Shown here one piece after another: positions 21,808 to 44,207 of a stretch of 64,000 nt of DNA. Origin of the DNA: an uncultured Anaerolineaceae bacterium (GTDB taxonomy: Bacteria; Chloroflexota; Anaerolineae; Anaerolineales; Villigracilaceae); contig CAZGFR010000004.1 of the NCBI GenBank assembly GCA_964524485.1, forward strand, positions 3,036 to 67,035, given 5' to 3'. A model generated the notes under the pieces. It saw nothing but the letters and a program-made list of their open reading frames with translations, ran no database searches and was not told the origin of the DNA. Numbering within the stretch: position 1 is the first letter of the stretch; every line of letters starts with the position of its first letter. The translations under genes were made by a program, and so were the position numbers.

Positions 21808-22541
21808 AGTCAAACATCCTGGTTGTGGACGACGAACCCGTCGCCCGCCAATCCCTGACGGACATCCTCAAACTCGAGGGCTACAGCGTGGCCTCGGCTC
21901 CCAACGGTCATGCGGCCGTGGAACACGTCCGCACCCACCCCGTGGATCTGATGATTGTGGACCTGCGCATGCCAGGCATGGATGGCTTGGAAGTGGTACA
22001 GGTGGTCAACCAGATCTCCCCCGAGACCGAGGTCATCCTGCTTACGGCGTTCGGCTCTACCGAGACGGCTATTCAAGCCCTGCGGTTACGCATCCACGAT
22101 TACCTGCTCAAGCCCGCCTCGCCCTCCCAGGTGATGGCCAGCGTCAAGAAGGGACTGGCCCGCCGCTCCTCGCGGCTGCGCGTGCGCAGCGGGGCAGGGG
22201 GCGAGGTGGACGTGGAAGAACCCTCTGCACAGTTCAGCCTCAAGGACGGTACGGTGGTGGACCTCTCCCGCCGTCAGATCCGCATGAAGGACAAACTCGA
22301 ACACCTCACGCCTGCCGAGGGACGCCTGCTGCGTATCTTGATGGAGAACCCGGGCAAGGTCTTTTCTCACCGTGAGTTGGTCCTGTTGGTGCAGGGATAC
22401 GATGCCTCCCAGCGCGAAGCGCCCGAGATCCTGCGACCGCTGGTCAGTCGCCTGCGGCATAAATTGGAGATCTTCCCGATGTTGAACAACCGCGTGGTCA
22501 GCGTGCGCGGAACAGGCTACGTGTACGAGAACGAGGAATAA
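21804..22541 (+). CDS. OmpR-family DNA-binding response regulator
   Basis: The REC domain reads ILVVDDEP..LMIVDLRMPGMDG. The winged-helix C-terminus reads LTPAEGRLLRILMENPGKVFSHRELV..VSVRGTGYVY. Its start forms an ATGA overlap with the upstream gene. Confidence 0.9.
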   Translation: MKSNILVVDDEPVARQSLTDILKLEGYSVASAPNGHAAVEHVRTHPVDLMIVDLRMPGMDGLEVVQVVNQISPETEVILLTAFGSTETAIQALRLRIHDYLLKPASPSQVMASVKKGLARRSSRLRVRSGAGGEVDVEEPSAQFSLKDGTVVDLSRRQIRMKDKLEHLTPAEGRLLRILMENPGKVFSHRELVLLVQGYDASQREAPEILRPLVSRLRHKLEIFPMLNNRVVSVRGTGYVYENEE

Positions 22542-22549
22542 AACCAAAA

Positions 22550-22579
22550 CTGCCAGCTCACACGAGTTGGCAGTTTTTT
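22550..22579. terminator. Bidirectional rho-independent terminator (response regulator gene / convergent EamA gene)
   Basis: A 10-bp stem ctgccagctc / gagttggcag (one G-U pair) with loop acac is followed by T6. An A-rich run lies upstream. Confidence 0.65.
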
Positions 22580-22589
22580 GTTTGTGGAA

Positions 22590-23531
22590 TTACTGATAAG
22601 GCGGCCAGATTTCCTTGGGCGGGTCGGGCGGACGGATCCACGAGAGCCAGCCCTCGGCGTGCTTTTCGGGGGAGGTCTTCTCGAATCGGACCAGGAGCAG
22701 GCTGAGGCCAAGTCCCACGGCACCCAGCCATTGAAGTGGAGACAGGTTTTCGTGTAGCCAGTAGTAACTAAACAGGAGGGTCACCAGCAATTCTCCCAAC
22801 CCCAGCAGCGCGGTCTGCATCCCGCCGATCCGTTTGACGCCCAGGAACAACGCCAGGCGGGAAAGGAAGGTTGCCAGGGTCAACCCGAGCACGGGCTCCC
22901 AAGGGACATTTTGAGCAGGCCAGGTGCGGTCGAAGAGGAAATAGGCGGGTACGACCACTGCGCTCATCGAAAGCAAGGTATAGAGTGTGACGGTTTGTGC
23001 GGGTACTTCGTATAGCACGCGCTGGTTGATGGGCAGGTGCAGGGCGTAGAGCATGGCCGCGCCGATCATCATCAGCACGCCGGCCAGGTTGGTGGAACTG
23101 GCGGAGAGGTCGGTGAGCAGGATGACCGCCACCGAGGCCAGCCCGATGCGGATCAGCGTCAGACGGCTGAGGGTTTGTCGGTCGAGGATCATCCAGACGG
23201 CGAGGAACAGCGGGTAGAGCGAATAGAGCATCTGCCCGAGGCTGGCAGGCAGGCGGTTGAGCGCCATGTAATAGAGCAGGGAGCCAAGGCCGTTGATGAC
23301 ACCCGCCAGCATGCAACCGACCAGACCGACAGGGAAAATGTAGAGATATCGGCGGCCGAACAGGGCGACGATCAGGAAGAGCAGGGCGGCGGCCAGGCTG
23401 GTGCGCAAAGCTACCACCGCCAGGGGACTCAGCCCTTGGGTGATGGCCAGCTTGCCAAAGACCGGCGAGACCCCCAGGAACAGGGCCGATCCCAGCGCAG
23501 CGATGACTCCTGCCGTCTTTTTATTGATCAA
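22590..23531 (-). CDS. EamA/DMT-superfamily transporter
   Basis: It has ten predicted TM segments in two EamA-like halves. The start is a TTG with a GGGAGA SD 5 nt upstream. Confidence 0.8.
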   Translation of the reverse strand: MINKKTAGVIAALGSALFLGVSPVFGKLAITQGLSPLAVVALRTSLAAALLFLIVALFGRRYLYIFPVGLVGCMLAGVINGLGSLLYYMALNRLPASLGQMLYSLYPLFLAVWMILDRQTLSRLTLIRIGLASVAVILLTDLSASSTNLAGVLMMIGAAMLYALHLPINQRVLYEVPAQTVTLYTLLSMSAVVVPAYFLFDRTWPAQNVPWEPVLGLTLATFLSRLALFLGVKRIGGMQTALLGLGELLVTLLFSYYWLHENLSPLQWLGAVGLGLSLLLVRFEKTSPEKHAEGWLSWIRPPDPPKEIWPPYQ

Positions 23532-23694
23532 ACCGATCTCCCAGGTAGAAAAGACATTAGCTCACGAAGGGAATGCCATGATGCCAGAATCGCCCCGCTG
23601 TCGTTTGAAGCCTTCGTGTCTGTTCGGCAAAGGGGAACGAGAGAGCGAGAGGTCATCCCGCTCTTCTCGTTTGCTCCGCCCTCAAAGCGATGGA

Positions 23695-25365
23695 CTATTT
23701 GATCAACGAACGCACCTCTTCGAGGAATTCGTCGTTGAGGAAATCGCCCTTTTGCATCAACGCCTGGATCCGCCCGCTGAGCAGGTTCTTCTCCTGCGGG
23801 GTCAGTTCCTTGGCGGTGGACACGATCACAGGGATGTTGGCGGTCTCGGGGCGGGCGCGCAGGGCGTCCATCACGGCGAAGCCGTCCATTTCGGGCATCA
23901 TCAGGTCGAGGATGACCAGGTCGGGCAACTCACGCTGGATCAACTCCAGACCCTCCTTGCCGTTGGTGGCCTCGCTGATGGTGTAATTGCCCTGCGATTG
24001 CAGGATGCGGCGGATGAGGCGGCGGGCCTCGGCGGTGTCGTCCACGATGGCCACGCGCGGGAAGCGGTCGGGGGCCACGTTGTTGAGCGCGGCCAGCAGG
24101 CCGTCCTCGGGAGTCTCCTCCTTGGGCGGCAGGACGATGTTGCGCGACCAGTTCTCGCCCAGCACGAACTGCTCGGCGGGCATGGTGTGTCCTGTGGCAT
24201 TGACCACTACCACGTCGGTCGGCTTGATGATGCCCGCGCGGATGAGTTTGAACAGACCCGCGAATGCCACAGCGGCGGCGGGTTCAGCGGAGATGCCTTC
24301 CATCTTGGCCAGCACGTGCATGGCGCGGTAGGCTTCCTCGTCTGTGACGCTCTCGAAAGCGCCCTGGGTGGCGTTGACGTATTTGCTCAGGATGTTATAT
24401 GCGCGGCCCGGGTCGCCCGTGGCCAGGGTCTCGATGTGGGTGCGGGGTGAGGTGACAGGCTCGGCGTTTTCCAGCCCGCGCTTCCAGCTGCTGACCATCG
24501 GCGCGCAGCCGTCCGCCTGGATGGGGGCCATGGCGGGCATGCGGTCGGTCAGGCCCATCTCGTTCAGTTCACGAAATCCCTTGTAGACGCCGATGGGCCC
24601 CATCCCGCCGCTGATGGCCTGGATGTACCAATCGGGCGTGCGCCACACGGGGGGCTGGTTCCCGTTGACAGACGCGGGCGGACCCAGCAGGGCGGTCAGC
24701 TGTTCGGCAATCTCAAAGGCGATGGTCTTCATCGCTTCGATGGAGGTGATGGTGCGCGCACCCATGTCGAGGTACAGGTTGCGCTGACGGGCGAACTCAG
24801 CCGCCATCTGCTTGACCTGGTCGTAGGACCCCGTCACCTTGATGACCTGGCTTCCATATAGCGCGATCTCCCGCATTTTGACGGCAGGCACCAGACTGGT
24901 GACGAATGCCCACAACTTGATGCTCGCGCGCGAGGCATAGGCCGAATAGGCGATGGCCACGTTGCCCGTGGATGCTGCCACCATTTCGGTGATGCCCGCT
25001 TCCTTGAGCGCTGCGATCGTGACCGCCGCCTGGCGGTCCTTGAAGGAGCCCGTTGGACCCTGGCGCTCGTCCTTGATGTACAGGTTGGGGCAGCCCAGCA
25101 TCATGCCCAGGTTGACGGCCTGGATGAGCGGCGTGCCGCCTTCACCTAATCGCAGGCTGGGGATGGGGTTGCGGATGGGAAGCAGCTCACGGTAGCGCCA
25201 CAGGTCGAAGGGGCGGTTCGCGATCAGGTGAGTGAAGTTTTCAGCGATGTTCTTGTAATCGTAATCCGCTTCGCGCCACTGGCTGTTACAACGCGGGCAG
25301 TGGAAGGAACTGGGATGGTATTCTGCGACATAGCCGCAGTCCATGCACTTGATGGTGAAGGTCAC
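23695..25365 (-). CDS. Threonine-synthase-like PLP enzyme (N-terminal Zn ribbon) fused to a C-terminal response-regulator receiver domain
   Basis: The Zn ribbon reads CMDCGY..CPRC. The PLP-lysine motif is GPTGSFKDRQAAV, with ASTGN and a GGMGP glycine loop. The REC domain spans aa ~437-556 (VAIVDDTAEARR..LVILDLMMPEMDG..IPVIVSTAKE..MQKGDF). The GTG start has a GGAGAA SD 9 nt upstream, and the first ribbon Cys lies upstream of the first ATG. Confidence 0.85.
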   Translation of the reverse strand: MTFTIKCMDCGYVAEYHPSSFHCPRCNSQWREADYDYKNIAENFTHLIANRPFDLWRYRELLPIRNPIPSLRLGEGGTPLIQAVNLGMMLGCPNLYIKDERQGPTGSFKDRQAAVTIAALKEAGITEMVAASTGNVAIAYSAYASRASIKLWAFVTSLVPAVKMREIALYGSQVIKVTGSYDQVKQMAAEFARQRNLYLDMGARTITSIEAMKTIAFEIAEQLTALLGPPASVNGNQPPVWRTPDWYIQAISGGMGPIGVYKGFRELNEMGLTDRMPAMAPIQADGCAPMVSSWKRGLENAEPVTSPRTHIETLATGDPGRAYNILSKYVNATQGAFESVTDEEAYRAMHVLAKMEGISAEPAAAVAFAGLFKLIRAGIIKPTDVVVVNATGHTMPAEQFVLGENWSRNIVLPPKEETPEDGLLAALNNVAPDRFPRVAIVDDTAEARRLIRRILQSQGNYTISEATNGKEGLELIQRELPDLVILDLMMPEMDGFAVMDALRARPETANIPVIVSTAKELTPQEKNLLSGRIQALMQKGDFLNDEFLEEVRSLIK

Positions 25366-25379
25366 AGAGTGTGTTTCTC

Positions 25380-28300
25380 CTAAGCCGGGCCTGGTTTAAC
25401 ACGCTGGAGGGCGTGTTCGAGACTGGTGATAAGTTCCTTCTCGCTCAATCCGCTCTTGTGGACGAATTGCTGTCCGTAGTCTTCGAGCTGCTTGCGTTGT
25501 TCGGGCGTCAGGTCACCGCTGCTGACGATGATGATGGGGATCTCGCTCAAGCCCTTGTTGGTGCGCATTTTTTCGAGGATCTTGAAGCCGTCCATGTCGG
25601 GCATGAACAGGTCGATGATCACAGCCTGGGGGGCCTGGTTGAGGATCATCTCCCAGCCCTTGGCCCCGCCCTGGGCCAGCAGCGGTTTGTAGTTGCCGTT
25701 GTCGGTGAGCATCTTGCCCATCAGGCTCAGGTCGTTGGGATTGTCGTCGATGACCAGCACTTCGCGGATGGACCCGTCGGGGTTGATGCGGTTGAGGGCC
25801 TGGACCAGGTCCTCTTCCAGGATGGGCTTGACGAGGTAGTCGGAAGCGCCCAGGCTGAATCCGCGCTCCTGTTCTTCGATGATCGAGCAGATCATCACGG
25901 GGATGTCGCGCGTTTCGGGGTTCGATTTTAACTCAGTCAACACCTGCCAGCCGTCGATGCCAGGCATCATGATGTCGAGCGTAACTGCGAAGGGCTTGAG
26001 CTCGGCCACGCGTTTGACCGCCTGCGACGGGTCGCTGAGCGGGATGACCTGGTAGCCCGAGGATTGCAGATAGCGTTCGTACAGGCTGATGACCTGCGGG
26101 TCATCGTCGATGGCCAGGACCAGCTTGCCGCCATAATCGGCAGCCTTGGGTTCGCGATAGACGGGCAGCGTGAAGAAGAAGGTGCTGCCTTTTCCGACTT
26201 CGCTCCTGAGGCCGATCTCGCCGCCGTGCATGCGGATCAGGCGCTGGCTGATGGAGAGGCCCAGGCCCGAGCCGCCCGTCTTGCGGGTGGGGGCATCGTC
26301 CACCTGGGAGAAGGGCTGGAAGAGTTTGACCTGGTCCTTTTCGGCGATGCCTGGACCCGTGTCGGTCACGCCCACGTAGATCTCGGGCTGGCCCGAGGAA
26401 TTGTTCTGGATATAGGCGTCGACCGTAATGGAGCCCTCGTCGGTGAACTTGGCTGCATTGGAGAACAGGTTGATCAGCACCTGGCGGACGCGGATCGGGT
26501 CGGCGTGTGCGTGCGGCAGGTCGGCGGGGATGTTCTTGAGCAGGCGGATCTGCTTGTCCTTGACCAGGCCCGTCGCCGTGGACATGACGCTGGCGATGAT
26601 GTCGTTCATGTTGACTTCCTCGAAGGCCAGTTCCATCTTGCCTGCTTCGATCTTGGAAAGGTCGAGGATGTCGTTGATCAGGCCGAGCAGATGCTGGCCC
26701 GAGTTATAGATGGCGGTCAGGTCGCTTTGCTGCAACTCGGTGATGGGGCCGTCGATGCCCTTGAGGATCACGCGCGAGAAACCGATGATCGAGTTGAGCG
26801 GCGTGCGCAGTTCGTGGCTCATGTTCGCCAGGAAGGTGGTCTTCAGGCGGTCGATCTCGCGCATTTCCTTCACGGCTTCCATCGAAAGTTCGTAGGAGCG
26901 CGCGTTGTCGATGGCGATGGCCACCTGGTCTGCCAGGGTTTGCAGCACGGCCACGTCGTCCTCGGTGAAGGCGTCCGTTTGCGTGGACTGGATGTCCAGC
27001 GCGCCGATGACGCGGTTCCCCACCCGCAGCGGGATGGCCGCCTCGGCGCGGGTGCCTGGCAGCAGCGGATTGGGCTTGTGCAGCGTGCTGGATTCGGTGT
27101 CGTTGACGATGAGGGGCGCACCCGACTGGGTCACCTGGCCCACGATGGACTGCGACCCGACCTGCAGGCTGTGCCGCTGAATCTTCATGGCCGCGCCCGC
27201 TTCGCCAGTGGCTTCCTGTAAATGCGCCGTGAAGCCCGTCTCTTCGACGATGAAGATCGAGGCATGATAGAAGCCGAAGCGTTCACGCACCAGGTTGACC
27301 GTGCGGTTGAACAGGGTGTTCAGGTCGAGGGTGGAGGTCACCAGGCGGGCGATGTCGGACGAGGCTGCCAGATAGGTGTTGCGACGTTTCAGGCTTTCCT
27401 CGGCCAGTTTGCGTTCGGTGATGTTGCGGGCCACCCAGAAGACTTCGTCCTCGTTCAACTTCGAGAGGGTCGCCAGGAACCAGTAGACCGTGGTCCCGAC
27501 GGGCAGGTCGTACTCGAACTGGATCTTTTCGCCCGTTTCCAGGGTCTGACGGATGAGCGCCACGAAGCGGTCGGCCGCCTCGCTGGGCAGCACCTCGTGC
27601 ATGCGTTTACCGAGCAATTCGGCGGGCGGGCGGACGAGCAGGCCAGGGTTGGTCGGCGCGATGCGGATGTAGCGCGCGTCCCCATCCACCACCAACACCA
27701 CGTCTTCCATCGAGGAGAACAGGGTGCGCAGGTCTGCTTCGGATTTGGCCAGCGCATCGCGGGCTTCGAAGCGCTCGATGGCGGCTGTCACCTGGGCGGC
27801 CAGCGGAACAAGCGCCTGGATGTGACCCTCGTTCAAACGGATCTTCGGGTCGTAGGTCTGGATGGTCATCACGCCGCGCACACCCCTTGCCGAGCGCAGG
27901 GGGATACCCAGCCAGTCCTCACCGGGCGCGCCGTCGGGGGTGACCCGTCCCTGTTGTTGGAGCTCTTCATACATCTCAGGCGTCACCAGCAGCGGGGCAG
28001 CTGTGTTGATGATGTAACTGGTCAGGCCCAGCCCGTACTTCATCGGCGGCGGAGGCGGATCTTTTTCATCCACGAAATACGGGAAGTTGATCATTCCCTC
28101 GGAAGGATCGTACAGGGCGATATAGAAATTGTCGGCGGGGGCCAGCCGTCGGGCCGCGTCATGGACGGCGCGCAACAGGTCCGTCAGGCTGGCGGCATTC
28201 AGCGCAGCTTCCGTGATTTGGGCCGTGGCGGTCTGCACCAACTGGCCGATCTTGCTCTCGGTGATGTCCTGGTTCGCGCCGAACGAGCGGACCGTGCGTC

Positions 28301-29060
28301 CCTGCGCATCCTTTTGTATGCGGAAGCGCATGGCCACGTATCCCAGCGTCCCATCGCCGAATGTGACGCGGTGTTCGAGGCCAGTGCTAAAGTTCGGGTC
28401 ACTGGTCTCGACCGACTTCTGGATCTCCATGCCCACCAGAGGGGCATCCTCGGGGTGAACGAAGCGCTCTACATAGCGCGCGGCGTTCATGGTGTAACCG
28501 CCCTCGCGTTCGGCGCTGGTGCGCATCACGTTGTAGAACTGGTCGTTGAACGTGAAGGTGTCGGTCAGGAAATCATATTCCCAGTTGGCCAGGCGCGCAA
28601 TGCGCAAAGCCTCGCTCAATTGGGCTTCGCTGGCGCTCACCTTCTGGAACAGGCGCGCGTTCTCGAGAGCCAGTGAAAGCTGGTCGGTCACCTGCTTGAC
28701 GAGCAACTGATCGTCGGAACTCCAGGTGCGGGTGCGCTCCTCGTCCACCACGTGCATGGTGGCCCAGTTGGTCTGGTCCATCTGGAAGCCGATGGAGATG
28801 CTGGGCGGTACACCCATCTCGTTGCCGTTGTCCACGACGATGGAGTCGACCTGCTGCGTGAGCATGCCCGTGGCCGCCAGGCGCGGACGCGGCGCGGGAC
28901 GGGCCGATGCGACCGCCTTCGGGTCGACGACCTGCCTGCCGCCAGCCTCACGCGGACCCTTGGACTGGCCCCGTTTTGGCTTCGATGGGGCCTCTTCGGG
29001 CTGGATCCCGTCAAAGAGCGTATCAATACGCTTGTCGATTTTCTGTTTCTTCTTTGGCAT
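25380..29060 (-). CDS. Cytoplasmic hybrid sensor histidine kinase: basic N-tail, headless GAF-like module, PAS, GAF, PAS, GAF, HisKA, HATPase, two receiver domains
   Basis: HisKA reads FLANMSHELRTPLNSIIG. HATPase reads NLFSNAAKFT, DTGPGI, GGSGLGLSI. The two REC domains read LVLAIDDDP..VTLDIMMPGIDG and VLVIDDNP..VIIDLFMPDMDG. The kinase-proximal GAF (RFGFYHASIFIVEE..LADQVAIAIDNAR) belongs to the same family as the receptor GAFs. No TM segments are visible. The start is taken at ATG 29060; the ORF-track start at 29204 is a TTG. Confidence 0.85.
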   Translation of the reverse strand: MPKKKQKIDKRIDTLFDGIQPEEAPSKPKRGQSKGPREAGGRQVVDPKAVASARPAPRPRLAATGMLTQQVDSIVVDNGNEMGVPPSISIGFQMDQTNWATMHVVDEERTRTWSSDDQLLVKQVTDQLSLALENARLFQKVSASEAQLSEALRIARLANWEYDFLTDTFTFNDQFYNVMRTSAEREGGYTMNAARYVERFVHPEDAPLVGMEIQKSVETSDPNFSTGLEHRVTFGDGTLGYVAMRFRIQKDAQGRTVRSFGANQDITESKIGQLVQTATAQITEAALNAASLTDLLRAVHDAARRLAPADNFYIALYDPSEGMINFPYFVDEKDPPPPPMKYGLGLTSYIINTAAPLLVTPEMYEELQQQGRVTPDGAPGEDWLGIPLRSARGVRGVMTIQTYDPKIRLNEGHIQALVPLAAQVTAAIERFEARDALAKSEADLRTLFSSMEDVVLVVDGDARYIRIAPTNPGLLVRPPAELLGKRMHEVLPSEAADRFVALIRQTLETGEKIQFEYDLPVGTTVYWFLATLSKLNEDEVFWVARNITERKLAEESLKRRNTYLAASSDIARLVTSTLDLNTLFNRTVNLVRERFGFYHASIFIVEETGFTAHLQEATGEAGAAMKIQRHSLQVGSQSIVGQVTQSGAPLIVNDTESSTLHKPNPLLPGTRAEAAIPLRVGNRVIGALDIQSTQTDAFTEDDVAVLQTLADQVAIAIDNARSYELSMEAVKEMREIDRLKTTFLANMSHELRTPLNSIIGFSRVILKGIDGPITELQQSDLTAIYNSGQHLLGLINDILDLSKIEAGKMELAFEEVNMNDIIASVMSTATGLVKDKQIRLLKNIPADLPHAHADPIRVRQVLINLFSNAAKFTDEGSITVDAYIQNNSSGQPEIYVGVTDTGPGIAEKDQVKLFQPFSQVDDAPTRKTGGSGLGLSISQRLIRMHGGEIGLRSEVGKGSTFFFTLPVYREPKAADYGGKLVLAIDDDPQVISLYERYLQSSGYQVIPLSDPSQAVKRVAELKPFAVTLDIMMPGIDGWQVLTELKSNPETRDIPVMICSIIEEQERGFSLGASDYLVKPILEEDLVQALNRINPDGSIREVLVIDDNPNDLSLMGKMLTDNGNYKPLLAQGGAKGWEMILNQAPQAVIIDLFMPDMDGFKILEKMRTNKGLSEIPIIIVSSGDLTPEQRKQLEDYGQQFVHKSGLSEKELITSLEHALQRVKPGPA

Positions 29061-29820
29061 ATTCCACCAGTTCCTGGGCCAGGTCACGGTATTGGACGGA
29101 GCCGCGGGTGTTGGGTCGGTATTGGGTAATGGGCAGTCCTGCGATGGGGCTTTCGCGCAGTTTGGTATCCACTTCGATGACAGTCTTGAACACGCCCTCG
29201 CCAAAGGTGCTGCGCAACTGCTCGTTGATGTTGCGATGCGTGCGGTTGCGGCGGTCGAACATCGTCACCAGGATGCGATAGGCCAGGTCGGCGTTGCTTT
29301 CCATGCGGATGCGGCGGATGAGGTTCATCATGTTACGCAGGGCGTAAGCCGAGAAATACTCCGCCTGGGTGGGGATCACCAGCAGGTTGGCCGCGCTGAG
29401 CGCGTTCATGGTGATGGCGCCCAAAGCGGGCGGGCAGTCCATCAGGATGTACTCGTATTTCATGTTGCCCGCGCTCTGGATGGAACGGCGCAGGGTGGAG
29501 ATGTACCCCGTCCGCACGGGCAGGAAGTGTTCGGCGCTTTCGATGCGCGAGTTGCACGGCACCAGGTCGAGGTTGGCGATCTCCGTCGTGCGCACGGCCG
29601 TCATCAGCGGTGTGGCTTCGATCAGCACATTGCTCGACGTGTATTCACTCTCGCCGATCTCGATGCCCAGCGCCAGCGACAGGTTGGCCTGCGGGTCGAG
29701 GTCGATCAACAGCACCTTGTGTCCCAGTTCCGCCAGGGCGGCCCCGAGCGAGAGGGTGGTGGTGGTTTTGGCCACTCCACCTTTTTCGTTTGAAATGGCG
29801 ATTGTTTTGGTCATGGTCAT
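29023..29820 (-). CDS. Orphan ParA/MinD-family (Soj-like) P-loop ATPase
   Basis: It has the deviant Walker A (ISNEKGGVAKTTTT), then LLIDLDPQANLS and a Walker B region (ILMDCPPAL). No parB or parS-like partner is seen nearby. Confidence 0.9.
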   Translation of the reverse strand: MTMTKTIAISNEKGGVAKTTTTLSLGAALAELGHKVLLIDLDPQANLSLALGIEIGESEYTSSNVLIEATPLMTAVRTTEIANLDLVPCNSRIESAEHFLPVRTGYISTLRRSIQSAGNMKYEYILMDCPPALGAITMNALSAANLLVIPTQAEYFSAYALRNMMNLIRRIRMESNADLAYRILVTMFDRRNRTHRNINEQLRSTFGEGVFKTVIEVDTKLRESPIAGLPITQYRPNTRGSVQYRDLAQELVEYAKEETENRQAY

Positions 29821-29826: not shown

Positions 29827-32667
29827 CTAGGATTCGGGCCGCTCCGAAACGGATTGCGGCAGGACTTCGATGCGGTTGACGCCCAGGGCGTTCTTCAACT
29901 CCTGCATCGCCAGACGGATCATTTCGTTCGGGTCATTGGTCGAGCGGATGGTCGAGGTAATCTCAGATACCTTGCGTTCACGTTCGGCGCGTCGCAGGGA
30001 GTCCTGAAGCAGGCGGGCATTTTCGAGCGCCAGCGCCAGGCGGTCGGACGCGGTCTGCACCAGCGCCACCTCCTCCTTGGCCCACTGACGGTCCTTCTGC
30101 AGCGACATCACGTTCAGCACGCCGAGCAGTTCGCCGCGCAATTTAACGGGCATGACGATGGTCGGCTGGTGCGCGTCCCCGCCGTCCGTCACAACCACTT
30201 CGCCGCGTTCCAGCGCCTGCTGCATGCTCTCGCTTTGGACGGGCTTGTTGAGCAGCCTGCCGCCGCTGATCGACTGATAATAGCCGACGCTGGCGCTCTG
30301 CTGGGCGAAGCCCTTCCACTCCTGCCGCAGATACTGGCTGTACATGCTCTGCACTTCTTCGAGGGCCTGCTGGGTGCGTTCGAACAGGCGCGCGTTCTCG
30401 ATGGCGATGGCCACCTGGTCGGCCAGGGTGCTCAACACGTTGGCGTCGTTGTCGGTGAACGCCCCGTGCTTTTCGCTTTGCACGTCCAGCACGCCGATCA
30501 CGTCGCCGCGCACAATCAGCGGCAGGGCCATTTCGGAGTGGGTGTTAGGCAGGTCTGGGTTGTTGAAGAAAGCCGAGTCCGCGCCCACGTCGAGGGCGAT
30601 GCGCGGCTTGCCCGTGTTGGCCACATACCCCACGATGCCCGTCTGGCCCACCTGCAAGCGGTGACCGCGCGCCAGCATGCGCTGTCCGCCTTCGCTGTTG
30701 GCGGCCTGCAGCACGGCATAGGTGCGGGTCGGGTCGAGCAGGAAGATGCCTGTGTGATAGAAGCCGAATTTCTCGCTCACGGTACGGGCGATGAGCGGGA
30801 GCAGCACGTCGATACGCTGTTCAGCGGAGATGGCGCGTGAGACTTCGCTGATGGTCTCCAGGTTCCTGGCGCGCTCTTCACTTTGCAGGCGCGCGATCTC
30901 CAGGTCGTAGGTTCGCTCGGCCACGCTCCGTTCCAGTCCTCTCAGCGTATCGGAAAGCTGGCTCACGGTTTGATCCATCACACTGGCAAGCGTGCCGAGC
31001 TCGTCGGAGCGCTGGATGGCGTTCCGCACCGTGAGGTCGCCTGCCTGGATGCGCTCAGCGGTTGCCGTCAGGGACTGGACCGGGGCGACCAGCATCCTTG
31101 CGGATAGATTGGCCAGAAAACCTGCGCCAACGAAAAGGATCACAAGCAACGCCGCGCCCGCGCCCAATTGGCCGAACAAAGGCTGGAGGAAAGTCTCGCC
31201 GGGTTCCACGGCAATCGCCGTCCACGGTTTGAGCTGCGTGCGCGTCAGGCTGGCCTGGTCGTCACCGGGGGAGGTGTCGTTCGTTTCGAGTTCCACAGAG
31301 AAGAAATTCGAATCAGGATTTGCCAGGCCCGCTTCCATGTCGGGCAGGTTCAGCAGGAAATTCTCCTGTGGGCCAGGCGGGAGCCTCTGGGCATCCTGGA
31401 GGTCGGCGATCTGTGTCGCGCTGAACGGGGTGGATGTCTTGTAAAGCTTGTTCTCGTTCTTCTCGTCTGCGAGGATGGTGTGGTTTTCGTCCATCAGGAG
31501 AATGTAGGCGGTGGTATCGGCCGTATTGCCCTTCACAATTAGATTCTGCAGGACGGCCGCATCATATTCGACCACCAGCACCCCCAGCAGGGTGCCGTCC
31601 TCGTCCGAGATGGGGGCGCTGAAATACAGTTCCGCCGCACCCGTCTGCGGGTCGAACAGCACGTCCGAGGCGTAGGCCTGTCGATTCGAGATGACGGACC
31701 GATAGAAGGGGGCATTCGACTCATCGGTGGAGACGTGCGCCTGTTCCTCACTGCTGTCGAAGAGACTCTTGCCCTGGGCGTCGAGGACCAGATAGGTCTT
31801 GATCTCCCTTTGTGTCGAGCCCAGCGCCAGCAGCGTCCCCTGGAGTTCTTCGGCGGTTTCCTCTCCCTTGAGGAAGCCGATCACGCTGGGCAGGGTGGCA
31901 TTGGCCTGGATGGTGTTTAGATTATCCTGGAGGAAGGTGTCTATCTGGTGGGATGCCTGTTGCGCCTTATCCTGCAAACTCTGTCTGGATTTCTGGGTAA
32001 GGATATCCTGCGTGCTCAATAAAGCGGGGACGCCGATCATCAACACGGGCACGATCAACGTGATGAGGTAGGTTGTGTTGAGCTGGGTGCGCAACGACTT
32101 GAACTCGATCTGGGTGGTCAGGTGGATGCCGAAGAACAGCACCACCGCGCCGATGACGATGATGACACCCTGTTGGATCAAAGAGGCGATCGGAAGCCGC
32201 TCGGTGAGCTGCAGTCCATATTCGAAGATGAGGGTGGCGACGCTGAACATCCCGCCGATCACCAGGGCGAGTTGCACGCCGCGCGGCGGCAGCGCCTGCA
32301 GGGCAAAGATGGCCGTGAAGACTATCGCACCCAGAGCGAAAGTGATGCCCATCCCTGAAACGAAGAGCGTAGCAACGGTAAAGGTTAAGTTGACGATGCC
32401 GATGAATATCCAGGCCGTCAGGGAGGTATTCTTCGTCCGCCAGAGCAGGATCGTGCCTATCAGGATGGCCAGGCCCAGGATGGCATTGTCGATGAACAAC
32501 CCGTAATGCTGCCAGGCGCCGCCGCTCTGCCGTAACAGGCTGAGGTAGAACAGCTCGACCAGGATCACGGCGATCACGCCCGCCACACCGAAAGTCAGCA
32601 GGGTGCGATATTGGACGATTTGCTTGCTGGCTTGTCGTCGTTCTTGAGTGGGTTCAGAAGGTTGCAT
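29827..32667 (-). CDS. Receptor paralog R8: ~7 TM + dCache-like extracytoplasmic domain + TM + HAMP + GAF + GAF-like + C-terminal GAF-head stub; no output domain
   Basis: HAMP reads AERIQAGDLTVRNAIQRSDELGTLASVM. The signalling helix reads LERSVAERTYDLE. The GAF core reads KFGFYHTGIFLLD..GHRLQVGQTGIVGYVA..PDLPNTHSEMALPL..LADQVAIAIENARLF. A second module ends in RLALALENARLL. The terminal stub reads ERERKVSEITSTIRSTNDPNEMIRLAMQELKNALGVNRIEVL. Confidence 0.8.
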   Translation of the reverse strand: MQPSEPTQERRQASKQIVQYRTLLTFGVAGVIAVILVELFYLSLLRQSGGAWQHYGLFIDNAILGLAILIGTILLWRTKNTSLTAWIFIGIVNLTFTVATLFVSGMGITFALGAIVFTAIFALQALPPRGVQLALVIGGMFSVATLIFEYGLQLTERLPIASLIQQGVIIVIGAVVLFFGIHLTTQIEFKSLRTQLNTTYLITLIVPVLMIGVPALLSTQDILTQKSRQSLQDKAQQASHQIDTFLQDNLNTIQANATLPSVIGFLKGEETAEELQGTLLALGSTQREIKTYLVLDAQGKSLFDSSEEQAHVSTDESNAPFYRSVISNRQAYASDVLFDPQTGAAELYFSAPISDEDGTLLGVLVVEYDAAVLQNLIVKGNTADTTAYILLMDENHTILADEKNENKLYKTSTPFSATQIADLQDAQRLPPGPQENFLLNLPDMEAGLANPDSNFFSVELETNDTSPGDDQASLTRTQLKPWTAIAVEPGETFLQPLFGQLGAGAALLVILFVGAGFLANLSARMLVAPVQSLTATAERIQAGDLTVRNAIQRSDELGTLASVMDQTVSQLSDTLRGLERSVAERTYDLEIARLQSEERARNLETISEVSRAISAEQRIDVLLPLIARTVSEKFGFYHTGIFLLDPTRTYAVLQAANSEGGQRMLARGHRLQVGQTGIVGYVANTGKPRIALDVGADSAFFNNPDLPNTHSEMALPLIVRGDVIGVLDVQSEKHGAFTDNDANVLSTLADQVAIAIENARLFERTQQALEEVQSMYSQYLRQEWKGFAQQSASVGYYQSISGGRLLNKPVQSESMQQALERGEVVVTDGGDAHQPTIVMPVKLRGELLGVLNVMSLQKDRQWAKEEVALVQTASDRLALALENARLLQDSLRRAERERKVSEITSTIRSTNDPNEMIRLAMQELKNALGVNRIEVLPQSVSERPES

Positions 32668-32690
32668 AGATTTCTCTCACACTAAAGGCA

Positions 32691-35564
32691 TCACTTGCGG
32701 ACAGGTTGAGGCTTGACACCGTCGACCGTCGCCGACGGGGAAGGCTGTACCTGGACCAACACTTCGGTGTCGCCGCCCAGCGCCTGGCTCAACTCCTGCG
32801 CGGTGATCTGCAGGATCGACTCGAGGCGGATCGAAGAACCGATCTTGCCCGAAAGGTCGGCCGAGAGGCGTTCCAGTTCGGCGCGGCGGGTCGACTCTTC
32901 GAACAGGCGGGCGTTCTCCAGCGCGAGCGCCATTCGGTCGCTGACGGCCTGCACCAGGCTGATCTCGTCCACATTCCATTCGTGACCTTGTTGGCTCGGC
33001 TGGACGTTGATGACACCGATCACCTGGCCGCGGAGTTTGACCGGCATGGACAGGGACGCGGTCTGGCCGTCGTGCGCGGGGTTGAGGACCACCTCACCCC
33101 GTTCCAACGCGGCTCTCGCCTCGGCTGAATATTCCTCGGACTTCAGCCTGGCCCCGCCGCTCAGGGTTTGCTGGTATCCCAGGCCCTGGCTGCGGCGGGC
33201 AAAGCCCGTCCACTCCTGGCTGATGTACTGACGGTACACCGACTGCACCTCGGCCAGGGCGGCTTCCGTCTGGCTGAACAGGCGGGCGTTGTCGATGGCG
33301 ATGGCCACCTGGTCTGCCAGCACGGTGAGGGTGCTCAGGTTTTCGACCGTGAACACGCCGGAGTCGGTGCTTTGCATATCCAGCACGCCGATGGTCTGTC
33401 CGCGTGCGTTGAGGGGCAGCGCAATCTCGGAACGGGTATTGGGCAGATCGGGATTGTTGAAGAAAACGGCGTCAGCACCCACGTCGAGGGCGATGCGCGG
33501 TTGACCCGTCTGGGCCACGTAGCCCACGATGCCGGTCTGTCCCACTGCCAGGCTGTGACCGTGCGCCAGCATCCGCTTACCGCCTTCACTGCTGGCTGCC
33601 TGGAGGATGGCGAACTGTCGGTTGGAGTCGAGCAGGAAGATGCCCGTGTGATAGTAGCCGAATTTTTCGGTGATGAGGTTCGTGATGAGCGGCAGCAGCG
33701 ATTCGAGCCGCTGCTCGCCCGAGATGATGCGCGCCACGTCGCTAATGACCTCGAGGTCATGCGCGCGCGCCTCGCTTTGACGGCGGGCCACATCGAGGTC
33801 GTTAGTGCGTTCGGCCACGCGGGTTTCGAGGCTTTGCAGGGTCAGTTTCACCTGGTCGGACATGCGGTTGAACGTGGCTGCCAGTTCGCCGATCTCATCG
33901 TCCGCGCTGACGACAGCTTGGGCGGTCAGGTCGCCGGCGGCAAGTTTTTCAGCGGTGCTCTTCAAGGACAGCACCGGCTGCGAAATGATCCGCGCTGCAT
34001 ACAGGGACGAGAGTACGGCCAGCAGGATCAGCGCGATCGAGCCGAGCACGATGGCGCGGTTCTGGATGCGGACCGGGGCGTATAGCACGGATTCAGGCTG
34101 GCTGGCGATGGCCACCCACTTGACCGATTTCATCCGCGCGCCGGTCGTCAGAGCGCTGACCCCGGGCTTGGGCAGGTCGGCAGTGAAGTAGGGCGTTTGT
34201 TCGAGAGTCTGGATGCCCGCTACGACCGCGTCCGAACTGGCGATGGTTTCGTCGGCGGGACCGGGCGGAAGCAGTCCCTGCAATTGCAGGTTGGCCATGT
34301 CGATCGGCCCGTAGTTGCTGAAGGATTTGTACAACTCGTTGCGCGGACCGGTATAGGCCACGCGCACATAGGTACGGGCGTCCACCAGGGCCACGAGTTG
34401 TTGCTGTTCCTCATGGCCCGCCAACAGGGAGCGCATCATGTTCTGGAAGACGGCTGCGTTATATTCCGCGCGCAGGATGCCGATCACATCGCCGGAGAGG
34501 TTGCGGACCGGCGTGCTGAAATGGATATTGGCCTTGTTGCCGCTCTCGAAGACCAGGGTGGAGACGTACGGCAGGCCTGAGTTGAAGGGGACCTTGAAAT
34601 AGTCGAACCCGCTCTCGTCACGGCCGATCTGGTTCTCTGCCGTATCGAGGATATCCCGTCCGCTGACGTCGAGCAGGGCATACGAGTAGATGAACAGCAG
34701 GTCCTTGCGGACGAAGGTGTTCAGCGTGCGCAGGGCGTTGGCCTCCTCCGGGCTGCCCGCGCGCTGGAAGGTGGGCAGGGTCATGTACGCGATGATGGTG
34801 GGCTGTTGGGCTTCCGTGCGCAGGCTGTCCAATTGGGCGATGATGTACGCATCGGCCTTGTCGGCGGCGTTGGCGGCCAGGTCCGAGAGGTTCAACTTGG
34901 CCTGTGACTCCTGGGCCTGACGGCCCGCCAGGCTGCCAGCCGTGCCGAAGAGGAGCAGCGGGACCAGCGCTACGAGGGTGAAGGCGATCAGGATCTTTGC
35001 CTGCAGATTGAAGGAACTGAAATTCCTGAGGAGGAGGACGGTGAACACGATGGCCAGGACCGCTGAGATCGGGGTGCTGATCGTCGTGTTGGTTTGGATG
35101 CCAAACCCGACCGGCAGGAACAGGTCCGCGAGGATGGCCAGGGTGCCCAGGACGGCGGAGAAGGCAGCCGCCCGGACCACGTAGTTGGTCGGAAGCGTGG
35201 CGGTCGCGATGGTGGTCGTCATGACGATAAGCGCCAGGACCGGCGCAACCACCTGCCCGGGCAGCAGGTAGGGCATGAGCAGAATGGACATCACCAACAC
35301 AGTGATTAGGATGCCCATGCCGCCGCCCACCTGCCCGCGGTAGCTCAGGAGCAGGCTGACCAGGCCTGTCAGTGCCAGGAAACCGGCCAGGAAGACGCCG
35401 GCATAGATATCGCTCCCCAGGGTCTGCACGTTGAGCAAGAGGACTGCCGTGACGACGGTCAGGATCGCTGCTGTCAGACCGCTGATCCAGAGCGCGTTTC
35501 GGCGCCGCCTGTCTGTGAGGGCGTCGGAAGTGGGGGAGGGTGGTTGCGTTCGAGCGGGCATCAT
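32691..35564 (-). CDS. Receptor paralog R7: ~8 TM + dCache-like domain + TM + HAMP + GAF + GAF-like + GAF-head stub; no output domain
   Basis: It has the same architecture as R8. HAMP reads AEKLAAGDLTAQAVVSADDEIGELAATF, followed by LETRVAERTNDLD. The GAF core reads KFGYYHTGIFLLD..LADQVAIAIDNARLF. The stub reads RAELERLSADLSGKIGSSIRLESILQITAQELSQALGGDTEVLVQV. Confidence 0.8.
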   Translation of the reverse strand: MMPARTQPPSPTSDALTDRRRRNALWISGLTAAILTVVTAVLLLNVQTLGSDIYAGVFLAGFLALTGLVSLLLSYRGQVGGGMGILITVLVMSILLMPYLLPGQVVAPVLALIVMTTTIATATLPTNYVVRAAAFSAVLGTLAILADLFLPVGFGIQTNTTISTPISAVLAIVFTVLLLRNFSSFNLQAKILIAFTLVALVPLLLFGTAGSLAGRQAQESQAKLNLSDLAANAADKADAYIIAQLDSLRTEAQQPTIIAYMTLPTFQRAGSPEEANALRTLNTFVRKDLLFIYSYALLDVSGRDILDTAENQIGRDESGFDYFKVPFNSGLPYVSTLVFESGNKANIHFSTPVRNLSGDVIGILRAEYNAAVFQNMMRSLLAGHEEQQQLVALVDARTYVRVAYTGPRNELYKSFSNYGPIDMANLQLQGLLPPGPADETIASSDAVVAGIQTLEQTPYFTADLPKPGVSALTTGARMKSVKWVAIASQPESVLYAPVRIQNRAIVLGSIALILLAVLSSLYAARIISQPVLSLKSTAEKLAAGDLTAQAVVSADDEIGELAATFNRMSDQVKLTLQSLETRVAERTNDLDVARRQSEARAHDLEVISDVARIISGEQRLESLLPLITNLITEKFGYYHTGIFLLDSNRQFAILQAASSEGGKRMLAHGHSLAVGQTGIVGYVAQTGQPRIALDVGADAVFFNNPDLPNTRSEIALPLNARGQTIGVLDMQSTDSGVFTVENLSTLTVLADQVAIAIDNARLFSQTEAALAEVQSVYRQYISQEWTGFARRSQGLGYQQTLSGGARLKSEEYSAEARAALERGEVVLNPAHDGQTASLSMPVKLRGQVIGVINVQPSQQGHEWNVDEISLVQAVSDRMALALENARLFEESTRRAELERLSADLSGKIGSSIRLESILQITAQELSQALGGDTEVLVQVQPSPSATVDGVKPQPVRK

Positions 35565-35587
35565 GGTAGTTGTCTCATTTCGCGGCC

Positions 35588-36562
35588 CTATCTCAGGTAG
35601 GACTCGTCGAGCATGGCGTTGAAGTCGGGATTTGAGGTCAGGGTTCCAACCCGCACAAGGAAGTCAGTGTTGGTGGAGGCGATTTGCTGAATGGGGGAGG
35701 CGCCTCCGTCTGCACCGACCCGGTACAGGTCGAGATTGTTTTCGCGGTTGAACAGGGTGACGGGCGAGTTGAATTCGATGGTGCCCTGTGGAACCTTCAA
35801 GTATTCGGCGATGATCTGGCGGGCCGCCTGGGGATTCTGGCGGCGGAATTCCACGGCTTCGAACCAGGCGCGCAGGAAGGCGCGGATCTGGTCGGGCTGC
35901 GATTCAACCACCTCGCGGCGGAATACGATCACATCCGGGAAGAGCATCGAGGTCTCATTGGACTTGAACAGGATGCGGTTCCCTTTGGACAGGGCCTCAC
36001 CGGTGTAGGGTTCCCACGAAAAGCCTGCGTCGATGTCGACGCCCAACGCGGCGGGAACCTCGGCCGGGTCGTAATCGAACAGGGAGACGTCCGACAGTTT
36101 CAGACCGCCTGTTTCGAGCATCTGGACGACGAACAGTTCGTACGTCGAACCGATCGGCACGCCGATGCGCTTTCCTTTCAAATCCGGGACGCGCGTGATA
36201 TCGGGGCTGGCAATGACGGTGTTGGGACCGCCGTCGTCATAGACGGCTGGGATGACGATATCCGCGTGGTGGGAGGCGTTCAGCGCGTCGCCGATGTTCA
36301 TCAGCGCCCCGTCGAGCTGTCCGGCAGACAGGTCTGCCAGGCTTTTGTAATACACATCGTAATAGACGGGTTCCACGTCCACGCCGTACTTTTCGAACAG
36401 GCCGCGTTCCTTGGCGATGATCAGGGTGTAGTCACCCCACCAGGAAGTGAACTCGACCCGCAGGGGGGCGCGGGTGGCGGGCGCAGGTTCAAACGCGCCG
36501 CATGAGGTCAGCAGGCTGAGCACCACGGCGATTTGCAGGAATTTCCACAAGCGCGGGAACAT
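35588..36562 (-). CDS. Orphan lipoprotein substrate-binding protein, NMT1/THI5 (SsuA/TauA/NrtA-like) family
   Basis: It has a lipobox (LSLLTSCGA) and SBP-type sequence (LRVEFTSWWGDYTLIIAKERGLFEKYGVDVE..LKGKRIGVPIGSTYELF). No permease or ATPase genes are adjacent. Its ATG overlaps the R6 stop by 1 nt. Confidence 0.75.
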   Translation of the reverse strand: MFPRLWKFLQIAVVLSLLTSCGAFEPAPATRAPLRVEFTSWWGDYTLIIAKERGLFEKYGVDVEPVYYDVYYKSLADLSAGQLDGALMNIGDALNASHHADIVIPAVYDDGGPNTVIASPDITRVPDLKGKRIGVPIGSTYELFVVQMLETGGLKLSDVSLFDYDPAEVPAALGVDIDAGFSWEPYTGEALSKGNRILFKSNETSMLFPDVIVFRREVVESQPDQIRAFLRAWFEAVEFRRQNPQAARQIIAEYLKVPQGTIEFNSPVTLFNRENNLDLYRVGADGGASPIQQIASTNTDFLVRVGTLTSNPDFNAMLDESYLR

Positions 36563-38307
36563 TACTCGCCTCCTTGTGCGCCGGGCATCTCGGCCGCCTC
36601 GAGTTCAGCGGGTTGGATCTGCACCGTGACGTCCGAGCCGCCCAGGGCGCGGCTCAACTCTTCGGCCGCTGTCTGGATGATGGCCTCTATGCGGATGGTG
36701 GAACTGAGTTTGCCGGTGATCTCGGCGGTTACGCGCTCGACGTCCGCGCGGTGTTGGGCGGCGCGCAGCAGGGTGGAGGTCTCGAGCGCCAGCGAAAGGC
36801 GGTCGGCCACCGCCTCGGCGATATCGACATCGTCGGGATTCAAGGGTTTGTCCTGGGGGACGCGCAGGTTGATAATGCCGATGACCTGTTCGCGCAGGCG
36901 GATGGGCACAGCCAACGTGTTGGCCTGCTGGACGGTCTGATTGTTGCGCAGGGCTTGTTGGATGGGTTCGCCTTCGAGCGGCTTCTCCAGCGGGCGGACA
37001 CCCGCTGCCGAGGTTCGGTATCCCATGGCGGCGGCAGCCGGACGCAGGATTCTCCACGCCTGGGTGATATACCCGCTGGTGGCGCGCTGGGCCTCATTGA
37101 GCAGAGCGCGCGCCTCTACGAAGGAGTTGGCGTTCTGGATGGCGATGGCCACCTGGTCGGCCAACGTGGTGAGCGCCTCCACATCTTCCTGCTTGAAGGC
37201 GTTCGGCTCGGTGCTTTGCACGTCCAGTACGCCGATCAGTTCGCGGCCCACCCTCAGCGGCAGGGCCAACTCGGAGCGAGTGTTGGGCAGGTCGGGATTA
37301 TTGAAGAAGACCACGTCTTCGCCCGCGTTCATGGCGATGCGCGGATTGCCCGAACCCGCCACGTACCCCACGATGCCCACCTGCCCGACCTTGAGCCTGT
37401 GTCCGCGCGCGAGCATTTTCTGCCCGCCCTCGGTGTTGGCGGCTTTCAGGACGGCATACTCATGGGCATCATCCAACAGAAAAATGCCTGTGTGATAAAA
37501 GCCAAAATGCTGGCTGATGACATGCGTGATGCGCGGCAGGAGCGCGTCCAATTCCTGGACGGATGCGATGACCCGCGCCACCTGGGTGATGGCTTCGAAT
37601 TGGACGGCGCGTCGCTCGCTGTTGAGGCGGGCGGACTCCAGGTCGGCGGTGCGTTCCTGGATGCGCTCCTCCAGGTGCAGGCGGTTCTGCTCCAGTTCCC
37701 GCAGGGCCAGACGGGTCTGGCGGGCCTCCTGGGTGATCTCGCTTTCCAGGCGCTGCAGGCCGAGCACGATGACTCCGCTGAAAACCAGGAACATGCCCGC
37801 GGTACTGAGCCAGTTCAACACGTTCAGGTTGCCCGCCACGGCCACTGCCACGGGGGCGTAACCGTTCAGGTACACGATTCCCCCGAAGAGCATGGCCGAC
37901 AGGGAGAGGGCGGTGGCGGTCCAGCCCGCGCGGGACGAGAGCATCAGGGTGGCGATCACAACCGTGGCATAAAAGAACAGGGTCGCATCGCTGAGGATAC
38001 CGAAATAGGTTAATTCATTGATGGCCACGCCGAACACGGCCACCAACAGCACCAGTACGCGTCCCGTGTAGGGGAACGGCAGGATGGTGATGACCAGCGC
38101 CAGCAGGTAGCCCACGGCGAATACGATGGTGGTGACGGGATTTTGCGCGGCAAGGATGCCCGCGACCAGCGCAAAGAAACCGAACACCAGCCCGACTCCC
38201 AACATGGGGCGGATAAAACCCGCACGCCAGTTTCGCACTGCCGATTCGGCTCCGTGCTGGATTGGACGCAGCAGGCTGGTCAGGGTAGGATCGTTGTACT
38301 TGTTCAT
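36562..38307 (-). CDS. Receptor paralog R6: multi-TM (no large loop) + coiled coil + GAF + GAF-like + GAF-head stub; no HAMP, no output domain
   Basis: About 6 TM segments are followed by LEERIQERTADLE. The GAF core reads HFGFYHTGIFLLD..LADQVAIAIQNANSF. The stub reads RADVERVTAEITGKLSSTIRIEAIIQTAAEELSRALGGSDVTVQI. Confidence 0.8.
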   Translation of the reverse strand: MNKYNDPTLTSLLRPIQHGAESAVRNWRAGFIRPMLGVGLVFGFFALVAGILAAQNPVTTIVFAVGYLLALVITILPFPYTGRVLVLLVAVFGVAINELTYFGILSDATLFFYATVVIATLMLSSRAGWTATALSLSAMLFGGIVYLNGYAPVAVAVAGNLNVLNWLSTAGMFLVFSGVIVLGLQRLESEITQEARQTRLALRELEQNRLHLEERIQERTADLESARLNSERRAVQFEAITQVARVIASVQELDALLPRITHVISQHFGFYHTGIFLLDDAHEYAVLKAANTEGGQKMLARGHRLKVGQVGIVGYVAGSGNPRIAMNAGEDVVFFNNPDLPNTRSELALPLRVGRELIGVLDVQSTEPNAFKQEDVEALTTLADQVAIAIQNANSFVEARALLNEAQRATSGYITQAWRILRPAAAAMGYRTSAAGVRPLEKPLEGEPIQQALRNNQTVQQANTLAVPIRLREQVIGIINLRVPQDKPLNPDDVDIAEAVADRLSLALETSTLLRAAQHRADVERVTAEITGKLSSTIRIEAIIQTAAEELSRALGGSDVTVQIQPAELEAAEMPGAQGGE

Positions 38308-42514: not shown

Positions 42515-42515
42515 G

Positions 42516-44204: not shown

Positions 44205-44207
44205 GGG

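Follow-up and report, generated by a model that had tools for sequence, protein, structure and literature searches.

Introduction

The output of a two-component system is nearly always transcription, the turnover of a second messenger or chemotaxis. In this study a gene was analysed which encodes a threonine-synthase-like pyridoxal phosphate (PLP) enzyme domain and a response-regulator receiver (REC) in one protein, called PALP-REC here. The gene is located on the minus strand of a 64,000-nucleotide stretch of DNA, referred to as the window, from an uncultured Anaerolineaceae bacterium (assembly GCA_964524485.1, contig CAZGFR010000004.1, positions 3,036 to 67,035). Anaerolineales dominate activated sludge, anammox reactors and groundwater, Ca. 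Villigracilis included. The fusion is genuine and conserved, and consists of a PLP domain of the threonine synthase (ThrC) fold and a complete, apparently phosphorylatable receiver.

Parts of this design are found in described systems. In CheB methylesterase and in PleD/WspR a flexible linker joins the enzyme covalently to a receiver that can be phosphorylated, and the gene lies beside that of a kinase, as is the case for PALP-REC. Their receiver is N-terminal and their substrates are signalling compounds (methyl-glutamate, GTP), whereas PALP-REC has a C-terminal receiver and a PLP amino-acid enzyme. Fold-type II PLP enzymes with appended regulators include IlvA (ACT-like C-terminal domain), cystathionine beta-synthase (CBS; C-terminal Bateman module, S-adenosylmethionine) and plant ThrC (N-terminal extension responsive to S-adenosylmethionine). 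In these the appended domain gates the active site or the dimer of a fold-type II core, and PALP-REC may be built on the same principle. Their regulators bind metabolites, whereas that of PALP-REC would be a phosphorylation switch under a sensor kinase.

Class I threonine synthases (TIGR00260; 2D1F, 6CGQ, 2ZSJ, 1UIM) share with PALP-REC the fold type II, the PLP lysine in SFKDR, the STGN loop and a C-terminal TGH motif, and the zinc-ribbon N-terminus is also present in a subset of canonical ThrCs (P0247, P0262, P0270). Identity to the class is approximately 30-38%. In PALP-REC STGNT is changed to STGNV, NS-NP-R-EGQKT to MGARTITSIEAMKT and GNAGN to GGMGP, the curated cut-offs are not reached and a C-terminal receiver is present. 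Cysteate synthase (TIGR03844; CapA2, 9K3C) is likewise ThrC-derived with an N-terminal extension, an earlier re-specialisation of this scaffold, and matched the fold with a TM score of 0.73. It has no receiver, and PALP-REC is only 22% identical to it.

Fusions of a receiver with a standard metabolic enzyme have been recognised as a class (Galperin et al. 2018, PMC5847659), with REC-glycosyltransferase, REC-thioredoxin reductase and REC-pyruvate phosphate dikinase given as examples in the accessible part of that census. These too place a metabolic enzyme under two-component control through domain fusion. They are mostly sporadic, whereas PALP-REC belongs to the conserved core genes of an entire order and keeps the same partners. 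The accessible part of the census mentions no PLP or PALP enzyme among such fusions (PMC5847659), and the searchable literature yielded no account of a response regulator of PLP or ThrC-like type. Names given to the homologues in databases are automatic only ("threonine synthase", "pyridoxal-phosphate dependent enzyme"). An earlier reading of the DNA, made from its letters alone (the sequence-only reading), had held that such an enzyme as an output would be an unusual direct link from phosphorelay to metabolism. The architecture is indeed rare and, as far as the searchable literature goes, undescribed, but it is not unprecedented in kind since REC-metabolic enzyme fusions are recognised (PMC5847659).

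Reading frame and domain layout

The open reading frame (ORF) was present exactly where the sequence-only reading had placed it. It has a GTG start, 556 codons and a stop, in one uninterrupted frame. An AGGAG Shine-Dalgarno sequence is located 12 nucleotides 5' of the GTG, and 14 nucleotides separate the GTG from the stop of the kinase gene upstream. The gene and its parts are as follows.

23695..25365, minus strand: PALP-REC gene with zinc ribbon, ThrC-like PALP domain, linker and C-terminal REC (ORF, Pfam, Shine-Dalgarno sequence and GTG, orthologues of 69-99% identity)
25288..25347, minus strand: N-terminal four-cysteine zinc ribbon (C7, C10, C23, C26), invariant in alignments A1 and A2 and kept in 122-126 of 126 homologues
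24190..25152, minus strand: PALP catalytic domain, residues 72-392 (Pfam, ThrC alignments, column counts, AlphaFold2, Foldseek)
24058..24183, minus strand: inter-domain linker, approximately residues 395-436, with a short conserved helix E-G-L-L-A-A-L (model confidence, alignment A1)
23698..24057, minus strand: receiver, residues 437-556, with D442/D443, phospho-acceptor D487, T517 and K539 (Pfam, matches to receivers in the PDB, conservation)

The Pfam scan that had been proposed as a check returned both domains, PALP (PF00291) at residues 72-392 (E 1.5e-62, 212 bits) and Response_reg (PF00072) at residues 438-538 (E 1.1e-20, 74 bits). All of the residues named beforehand were located, namely C7/C10/C23/C26, K109 in GSFKDR, G253-G254-M255-G256-P257, D442-D443, D487, T517 and K539, and the DNA range given for residues 437-556 was arithmetically correct. 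Landmarks of the PALP domain are the PLP lysine Lys109, the S132-T133-G134-N135 loop and the S252-G-G-M-G-P257 phosphate loop. Q112, D200, R204 and E210-A-M-K-T214 are specific to its clade. The zinc ribbon is not peculiar to the fusion, as the same element is found in canonical zinc-ribbon ThrCs and in unfused relatives.

Receivers in the PDB matched the fused REC at E 1e-19. Compared with the two receivers in the neighbouring kinase, it is approximately 32% identical to either one. A model of PALP-REC was predicted with AlphaFold2 from a 53-sequence alignment, with a mean predicted local distance difference test (pLDDT) of 81 and a predicted TM score of 0.74. PALP was predicted confidently (pLDDT mostly 85-98) and REC with moderate confidence. 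Residues 395-419 had a pLDDT below 50, indicative of a disordered linker, and the short conserved helix was placed at 423-428. Within the linker G422 is invariant in alignment A1 and A426/L427 are conserved at 90% or more.

Conservation of the fusion

Relatives of PALP-REC were searched for among 5.8 billion proteins. More than 120 protein clusters were found with 77-99% identity and a length of approximately 550-559 residues, and all had both PF00291 and PF00072. The named members of these clusters were Anaerolineae or Anaerolineales metagenome-assembled genomes (MAGs). One genome per GTDB species was scanned, and the locus counts are lower bounds, being drawn from the best 80 of at least 600 pattern matches. 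All of these 80 loci encode the fusion in full length, with 69-99% identity, so that it occurs in at least 80 species-level genomes. All 80 were Anaerolineales, Anaerolineae or Chloroflexota MAGs, Ca. Villigracilis among them, and several were on long-read contigs of more than 1 Mb. The window was approximately 99% identical to the groundwater MAG JACPVF01 (L002). When 1.84 billion representatives at 50% identity were searched exhaustively with HMMER, only approximately six clusters with the full-length fusion were found (P0121-P0126, 46-65% identity). Two of these, P0122 and P0123 (708 and 715 residues), have the architecture PALP-REC-REC. A collection of plasmids contained no annotated relative of PALP-REC above 33% identity.

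A rough neighbour-joining tree was built from PALP proteins only, carrying out the phylogenetic placement that the sequence-only reading had proposed. The fused proteins formed one clade within a group lacking the EGQKT motif, apart from canonical ThrCs. As all fused proteins fell in one clade of this rough tree, the fusion appears to have arisen once.

Column counts were made on the 126 fused homologues in hand. K109, S132, G134, N135, S252, G254, G256, N389, G392, H393 and T394 are fully invariant (126/126), and T133 (125/126), G253 (125/126) and P257 (122/126) are near-invariant. The receiver likewise retains its acidic pocket (D/E442 in 125-126/126, D443 in 125/126), the phospho-acceptor D487 (126/126), T/S517 (126/126) and K539 (125/126), the residues expected of a REC domain. 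Judged by these residues the fused enzyme looks active. When the window was compared with a second locus (L001), identity was 82% for the PALP core, 62% for the kinase, 63% for the EamA transporter and 71% for the housekeeping protein TrmFO. The PALP core is thus the most conserved part of the locus.

The single frame was confirmed by relatives, the clusters and the genome loci being in agreement. Three outcomes had been named in advance as telling against the fusion (a frameshift, loss of the PLP residues, absence of the fusion from relatives), and none of them was observed. The candidate explanation of an assembly or frameshift artefact, or of a decaying pseudo-enzyme, was rejected with near certainty on account of the same frame in more than 120 clusters and at least 80 assemblies and the invariance of functional residues.

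Two variants of the fused protein were observed. Cluster P0124 (562 residues) has a degenerate receiver (D442H, D443S, K539S) in which the phospho-acceptor aspartate is kept, and its PLP residues are intact. This receiver may be a pseudo-receiver. As P0124 has lost the acidic pair and the lysine yet kept the PALP residues, it suggests that the enzyme is the primary function of the protein. At locus L083 (8001-11000) a 46%-identical PALP-REC-REC variant lies directly behind a 1312-residue HAMP-GAF-PAS kinase. Downstream of it, two genes for stand-alone receivers and one for an acetyltransferase take the place of EamA.

Identity of the catalytic domain

The domain is a fold-type II PALP domain like that of threonine synthase, as seen from the strength of the PF00291 match and from K109, which aligns with K61 of 1UIM. 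By sequence the closest solved relatives were the class I threonine synthases 2D1F, 6CGQ, 2ZSJ and 1UIM (E approximately 1e-40). ThrC structures were also the best Foldseek matches (TM score 0.85-0.87 on target). Arabidopsis ThrC, CapA2 cysteate synthase (9K3C), dehydratases and TrpB ranked lower than the class I structures.

Motifs were compared with five solved ThrCs (2d1f, 6cgq, 2zsj, 1uim and 1e5x), with Thermus thermophilus numbering obtained by counting along the alignment. The hallmarks STG(N/D)T, N-S-x-N-x-x-R-x-E-G-Q-K-T and G-N-x-G-N were present in all five enzymes (Mycobacterium tuberculosis, B. subtilis, Aquifex, Thermus, Arabidopsis). PALP-REC has STGNV, MGARTITSIEAMKT and GGMGP at these places, and 120-126 of the 126 fused homologues share these replacements. 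From the T. thermophilus enzyme to PALP-REC the changes are T88 to V136, N154/S155 to M201-G202/A203, R160 to S208, G163-Q164 to A211-M212 and G187-N-A-G-N191 to G253-G-M-G-P257. The glycine that follows FKDR in ThrC is replaced by the invariant Q112 (FKDRG to FKDRQ). T88, N154, S155, R160 and N188 reportedly bind the phosphate of O-phosphohomoserine, and the bound phosphate is said to act in catalysis as well.

Curated models gave a similar picture. On TIGR00260 PALP-REC scored 152.1 bits against a cut-off of 167.1, and the other fused clusters scored 144-166. On PRK08197 it scored 248.4 bits against a cut-off of 303, with all other ThrC models far below. The canonical zinc-ribbon ThrCs P0247, P0262 and P0270 keep the hallmark motifs and scored 336 bits on TIGR00260. 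The cysteate synthase model TIGR03844 gave 114.4 bits against a cut-off of 324.9 (9K3C match: E 7.9e-11, 22% identity). Serine/threonine dehydratase models (IlvA/TdcB) gave at most 64 bits against cut-offs of 320-420, and dehydratase fold matches (E approximately 1e-15) ranked behind all ThrCs. PALP-REC, with its GGMGP loop, also lacks the GGGGL-type loop of a dehydratase.

The clade lacking EGQKT also includes unfused relatives, namely P0128 (53% identity), P0134, P0135, P0137, P0140, P0150 and others. The closest unfused relative is located among housekeeping genes of a Gram-negative organism. As PALP-REC has other residues in place of the hallmark motifs and stays below the cut-offs of the curated ThrC models, it was not filed as a threonine synthase. 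Its catalytic domain is derived from ThrC and, with a remodelled substrate pocket, is probably not a threonine synthase. The description of the gene as threonine-synthase-like therefore held for ancestry and fold, and failed as an assignment to threonine synthase.

Other ThrC-like proteins with additions were noted among the homologues. P0252 (491 residues) and P0266 (499 residues) are zinc-ribbon ThrC-like proteins with C-terminal tails of approximately 90 residues, winged-helix-like by eye, and P0207 (611 residues) has an extra domain of approximately 200 residues. As these carry different additions, the zinc-ribbon ThrC scaffold has gained regulatory appendages more than once. The Ca. Chlorohelix allophototropha plasmid NZ_CP128401.1 (L085 2953-4191) encodes a "threonine synthase", WP_341472039, without the canonical motifs (FKARG, SAGNAG, YRVEGKKT, GGGTG). 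Its gene is located between a phosphoglycerate-dehydrogenase-like gene and a response regulator and HAMP kinase pair, making it a further ThrC-like paralogue beside two-component genes.

Operon context

PALP-REC is part of a block of 12 genes, approximately 27 kb in length, which runs from approximately 50014 to 22590 and contains sensors, a kinase, PALP-REC and EamA. The features around the gene are as follows.

25380..29204, minus strand: hybrid histidine kinase PAS-PAS-GAF-HisKA-HATPase-REC-REC, presumed phosphodonor (Pfam, synteny)
22590..23531, minus strand: EamA/DMT-family transporter of 313 residues, downstream partner (Pfam EamA, weak TIGR00950 match, synteny)
22546..22577, no strand assigned: bidirectional terminator hairpin after EamA which ends the minus-strand operon (14-bp stem flanked by A and T runs)
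29827..50014, minus strand: eight transmitter-less Cache/MASE11-HAMP-GAF sensors and one SsuA-like binding protein (Pfam; varies among genomes)

The hybrid histidine kinase lies directly upstream, as would be expected of a cognate kinase. Of the 81 orthologous loci, 74 could be tested for the kinase and 79 for EamA. A kinase core lies approximately 1.5 kb upstream in 73 of the former and EamA downstream in 77 of the latter, each time on the strand of the fused gene. The family matched weakly by the EamA protein, TIGR00950, comprises carboxylate/amino acid/amine transporters. PALP-REC had been taken for the last gene of the block. This was not borne out, given that EamA follows so regularly and that the terminator comes only after EamA. 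No terminator was predicted between the two genes, the hairpin at 22546-22577 being the sole strong one. To look for a riboswitch preceding EamA, positions 21000-30500 were scanned against Rfam, and nothing matched at E up to 1. Among the 12 genes Pfam revealed no Hpt domain and no other enzyme, which upheld the earlier statement that PALP-REC is the only metabolic-enzyme candidate of the sensor operon.

Proposed mechanism and alternatives

With modest confidence, PALP-REC is proposed to be a phosphorylation-controlled fold-type II PLP enzyme which descends from a zinc-ribbon threonine synthase and, having an altered substrate pocket, does not use O-phosphohomoserine. What the data show directly is the architecture, the conserved PLP and phospho-acceptor residues, the loss of the ThrC hallmark motifs, the single clade of the fusion and the almost invariable order of kinase, PALP-REC and EamA. 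Which protein donates the phosphoryl group, in which direction activity is regulated, what reaction is catalysed and what the transporter does are points that we infer. The co-transcribed hybrid histidine kinase would integrate the many Cache/HAMP/GAF sensors of the operon and phosphorylate Asp487 in the C-terminal REC; transfer would be direct, or the two receivers of the kinase itself would compete for the phosphoryl group. The phosphorylated receiver, on its flexible linker of approximately 40 residues, would then alter the activity of the presumably dimeric PLP domain. An inhibitory contact might be released, as happens in CheB and with the Bateman module of CBS, or the dimer might be packed differently, as in PleD. 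An alpha-amino acid, though not O-phosphohomoserine, would undergo beta/gamma elimination or replacement, and the linked EamA transporter would move the substrate or product across the membrane. The sequence-only reading had suggested that the enzyme could make or destroy a signal, an idea made more plausible by the linked transporter. Such a module, in which a phosphorelay cues the turnover of a non-proteinogenic amino acid or a derived messenger and the transporter exports or imports the compound, is nonetheless quite doubtful.

A number of observations weigh against the proposed mechanism. The canonical order of an N-terminal REC followed by a C-terminal effector is reversed, and the PLP enzyme as the output of the receiver, as considered earlier, is therefore an assumption even though the fusion itself stands. 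As the adjacent kinase is of the hybrid type, with two receivers, and the block was found to contain no Hpt domain, the route of phosphotransfer is less clear. No confident REC-PALP interface was present in the AlphaFold2 model. Locus L081 (6730-15195) was the sole locus with an intact fused gene and neither kinase nor EamA. Its neighbours are genes for Nitro_FeMo-Co, two MinD-like 4Fe-4S ATPases, FeS_assembly_P, an ARMT1-like phosphatase, a ZIP transporter, radical SAM and DUF364 proteins. On the enzyme side, the unfused relatives of the clade straddle the TIGR00260 threshold (130-196 bits; P0128 181, P0137 196), and the high conservation of PALP-REC would equally suit a housekeeping enzyme. 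R/K204 (125/126) and the invariant Q112 and D200 are close to the remodelled loop, and together they might rebuild an anion site for a phosphorylated or sulfonated substrate.

These last points bear on the explanation that PALP-REC is the genuine threonine synthase of the cell, with the receiver putting threonine synthesis under phosphorelay control, much as an extension that binds S-adenosylmethionine controls plant ThrC. True ThrCs are its top sequence and fold matches, many homologues are annotated as threonine synthase by JGI (Joint Genome Institute), and the gene is extremely conserved, above TrmFO, and near-universal in the order. R/K204 could stand in for R160. A tblastn search with the T. 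thermophilus and M. tuberculosis ThrCs over the window and 84 loci (+/-10 kb each, 1.4 Mb) returned only the fused gene or its relative and no second ThrC-like gene, in a sample far too small to be informative. Against this, hallmark motifs are replaced at four separate sites, and all curated equivalog cut-offs are missed while canonical zinc-ribbon ThrCs score twice as high. PALP-REC also clusters apart from canonical ThrCs in the tree, and in the window operon it is not beside hom or thrB and is tied to a kinase and a transporter instead. A genuine threonine synthase is unlikely on this balance, if worth keeping in mind.

The C-terminal position of REC means that the PLP domain could equally be an input. 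Binding or turnover of an amino acid would then tune how readily the receiver takes up or drains phosphoryl groups from the hybrid kinase, as a metabolite-gated phosphate sink or connector, and the output would be elsewhere, for example in the convergent OmpR-type regulator. CheV and hybrid kinases have a C-terminal REC, variants with two receivers followed by two single-receiver genes form a sink-like arrangement, the kinase has two receivers of its own with no Hpt found in the block, and the OmpR-type regulator with two further kinases was convergent in 50 of 67 testable orthologous loci. However, the invariant catalytic lysine and PLP-contact loops, in a PALP core which is the most conserved part of the locus, exceed what ligand binding usually demands. 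The retention of PALP residues in P0124, whose receiver has lost its acidic pocket and lysine, also argues for an enzyme, and the linkage to EamA suggests a small-molecule product or substrate. An input role was consequently rated as improbable.

If the proposal of a phosphorylation-controlled enzyme is correct, a PLP amino-acid enzyme as phosphorylated partner would couple the sensing of the environment to amino-acid chemistry directly and at the post-translational level. A signal module, if real, would give filamentous Anaerolineales a two-component-gated switch for chemical communication or cross-feeding. In either case PALP-REC is a conserved core gene of an environmentally abundant order, in a fixed trio of kinase, enzyme and transporter. 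It is also tractable, being a soluble 556-residue protein with a chromophoric cofactor, an evident phospho-site, an adjoining kinase and a transporter as a hint to the metabolite. The results additionally point to an annotation problem, as hundreds of "threonine synthase" entries are without the ThrC hallmark motifs. Metabolic reconstructions of uncultured Anaerolineales may err on threonine biosynthesis because of such entries.

Other features of the window

The eight sensor genes are consecutive (29827-50014, minus strand) and each encodes dCache_1, dCache_3 or MASE11 with HAMP and one to four GAF domains. None has an output domain, and a single hybrid kinase is located downstream of them. 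Amid the sensors (35588-36562, minus strand) is a gene for an NMT1/SsuA-type periplasmic binding protein without an ABC transporter partner. It scored 151.7 bits on TIGR01728 (aliphatic-sulfonate binding) against a cut-off of 163.5. In the few loci with a flank long enough to include it, the gene is found again at about -9.4 to -10.7 kb. The SsuA-like protein may be a co-sensor, and a sulfonate ligand would suit a ThrC/cysteate-synthase-like enzyme; this is offered as a lead only.

The convergent two-component unit (17597-22541, plus strand) is comprised of a GAF histidine kinase (17597-20230), a REC-GAF-HisKA-HATPase kinase (20215-21807) and the OmpR-type regulator (21804-22541). TrmFO (16248-17588) and an M28 peptidase are next, and their order is conserved. 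The region 52000-56000 has a G+C content of 0.55-0.57 compared to approximately 0.62 elsewhere. It contains an AbiEii/DUF6036-type nucleotidyltransferase gene (54276-54788) and several ORFs without a Pfam match, and may be a small mobile island.

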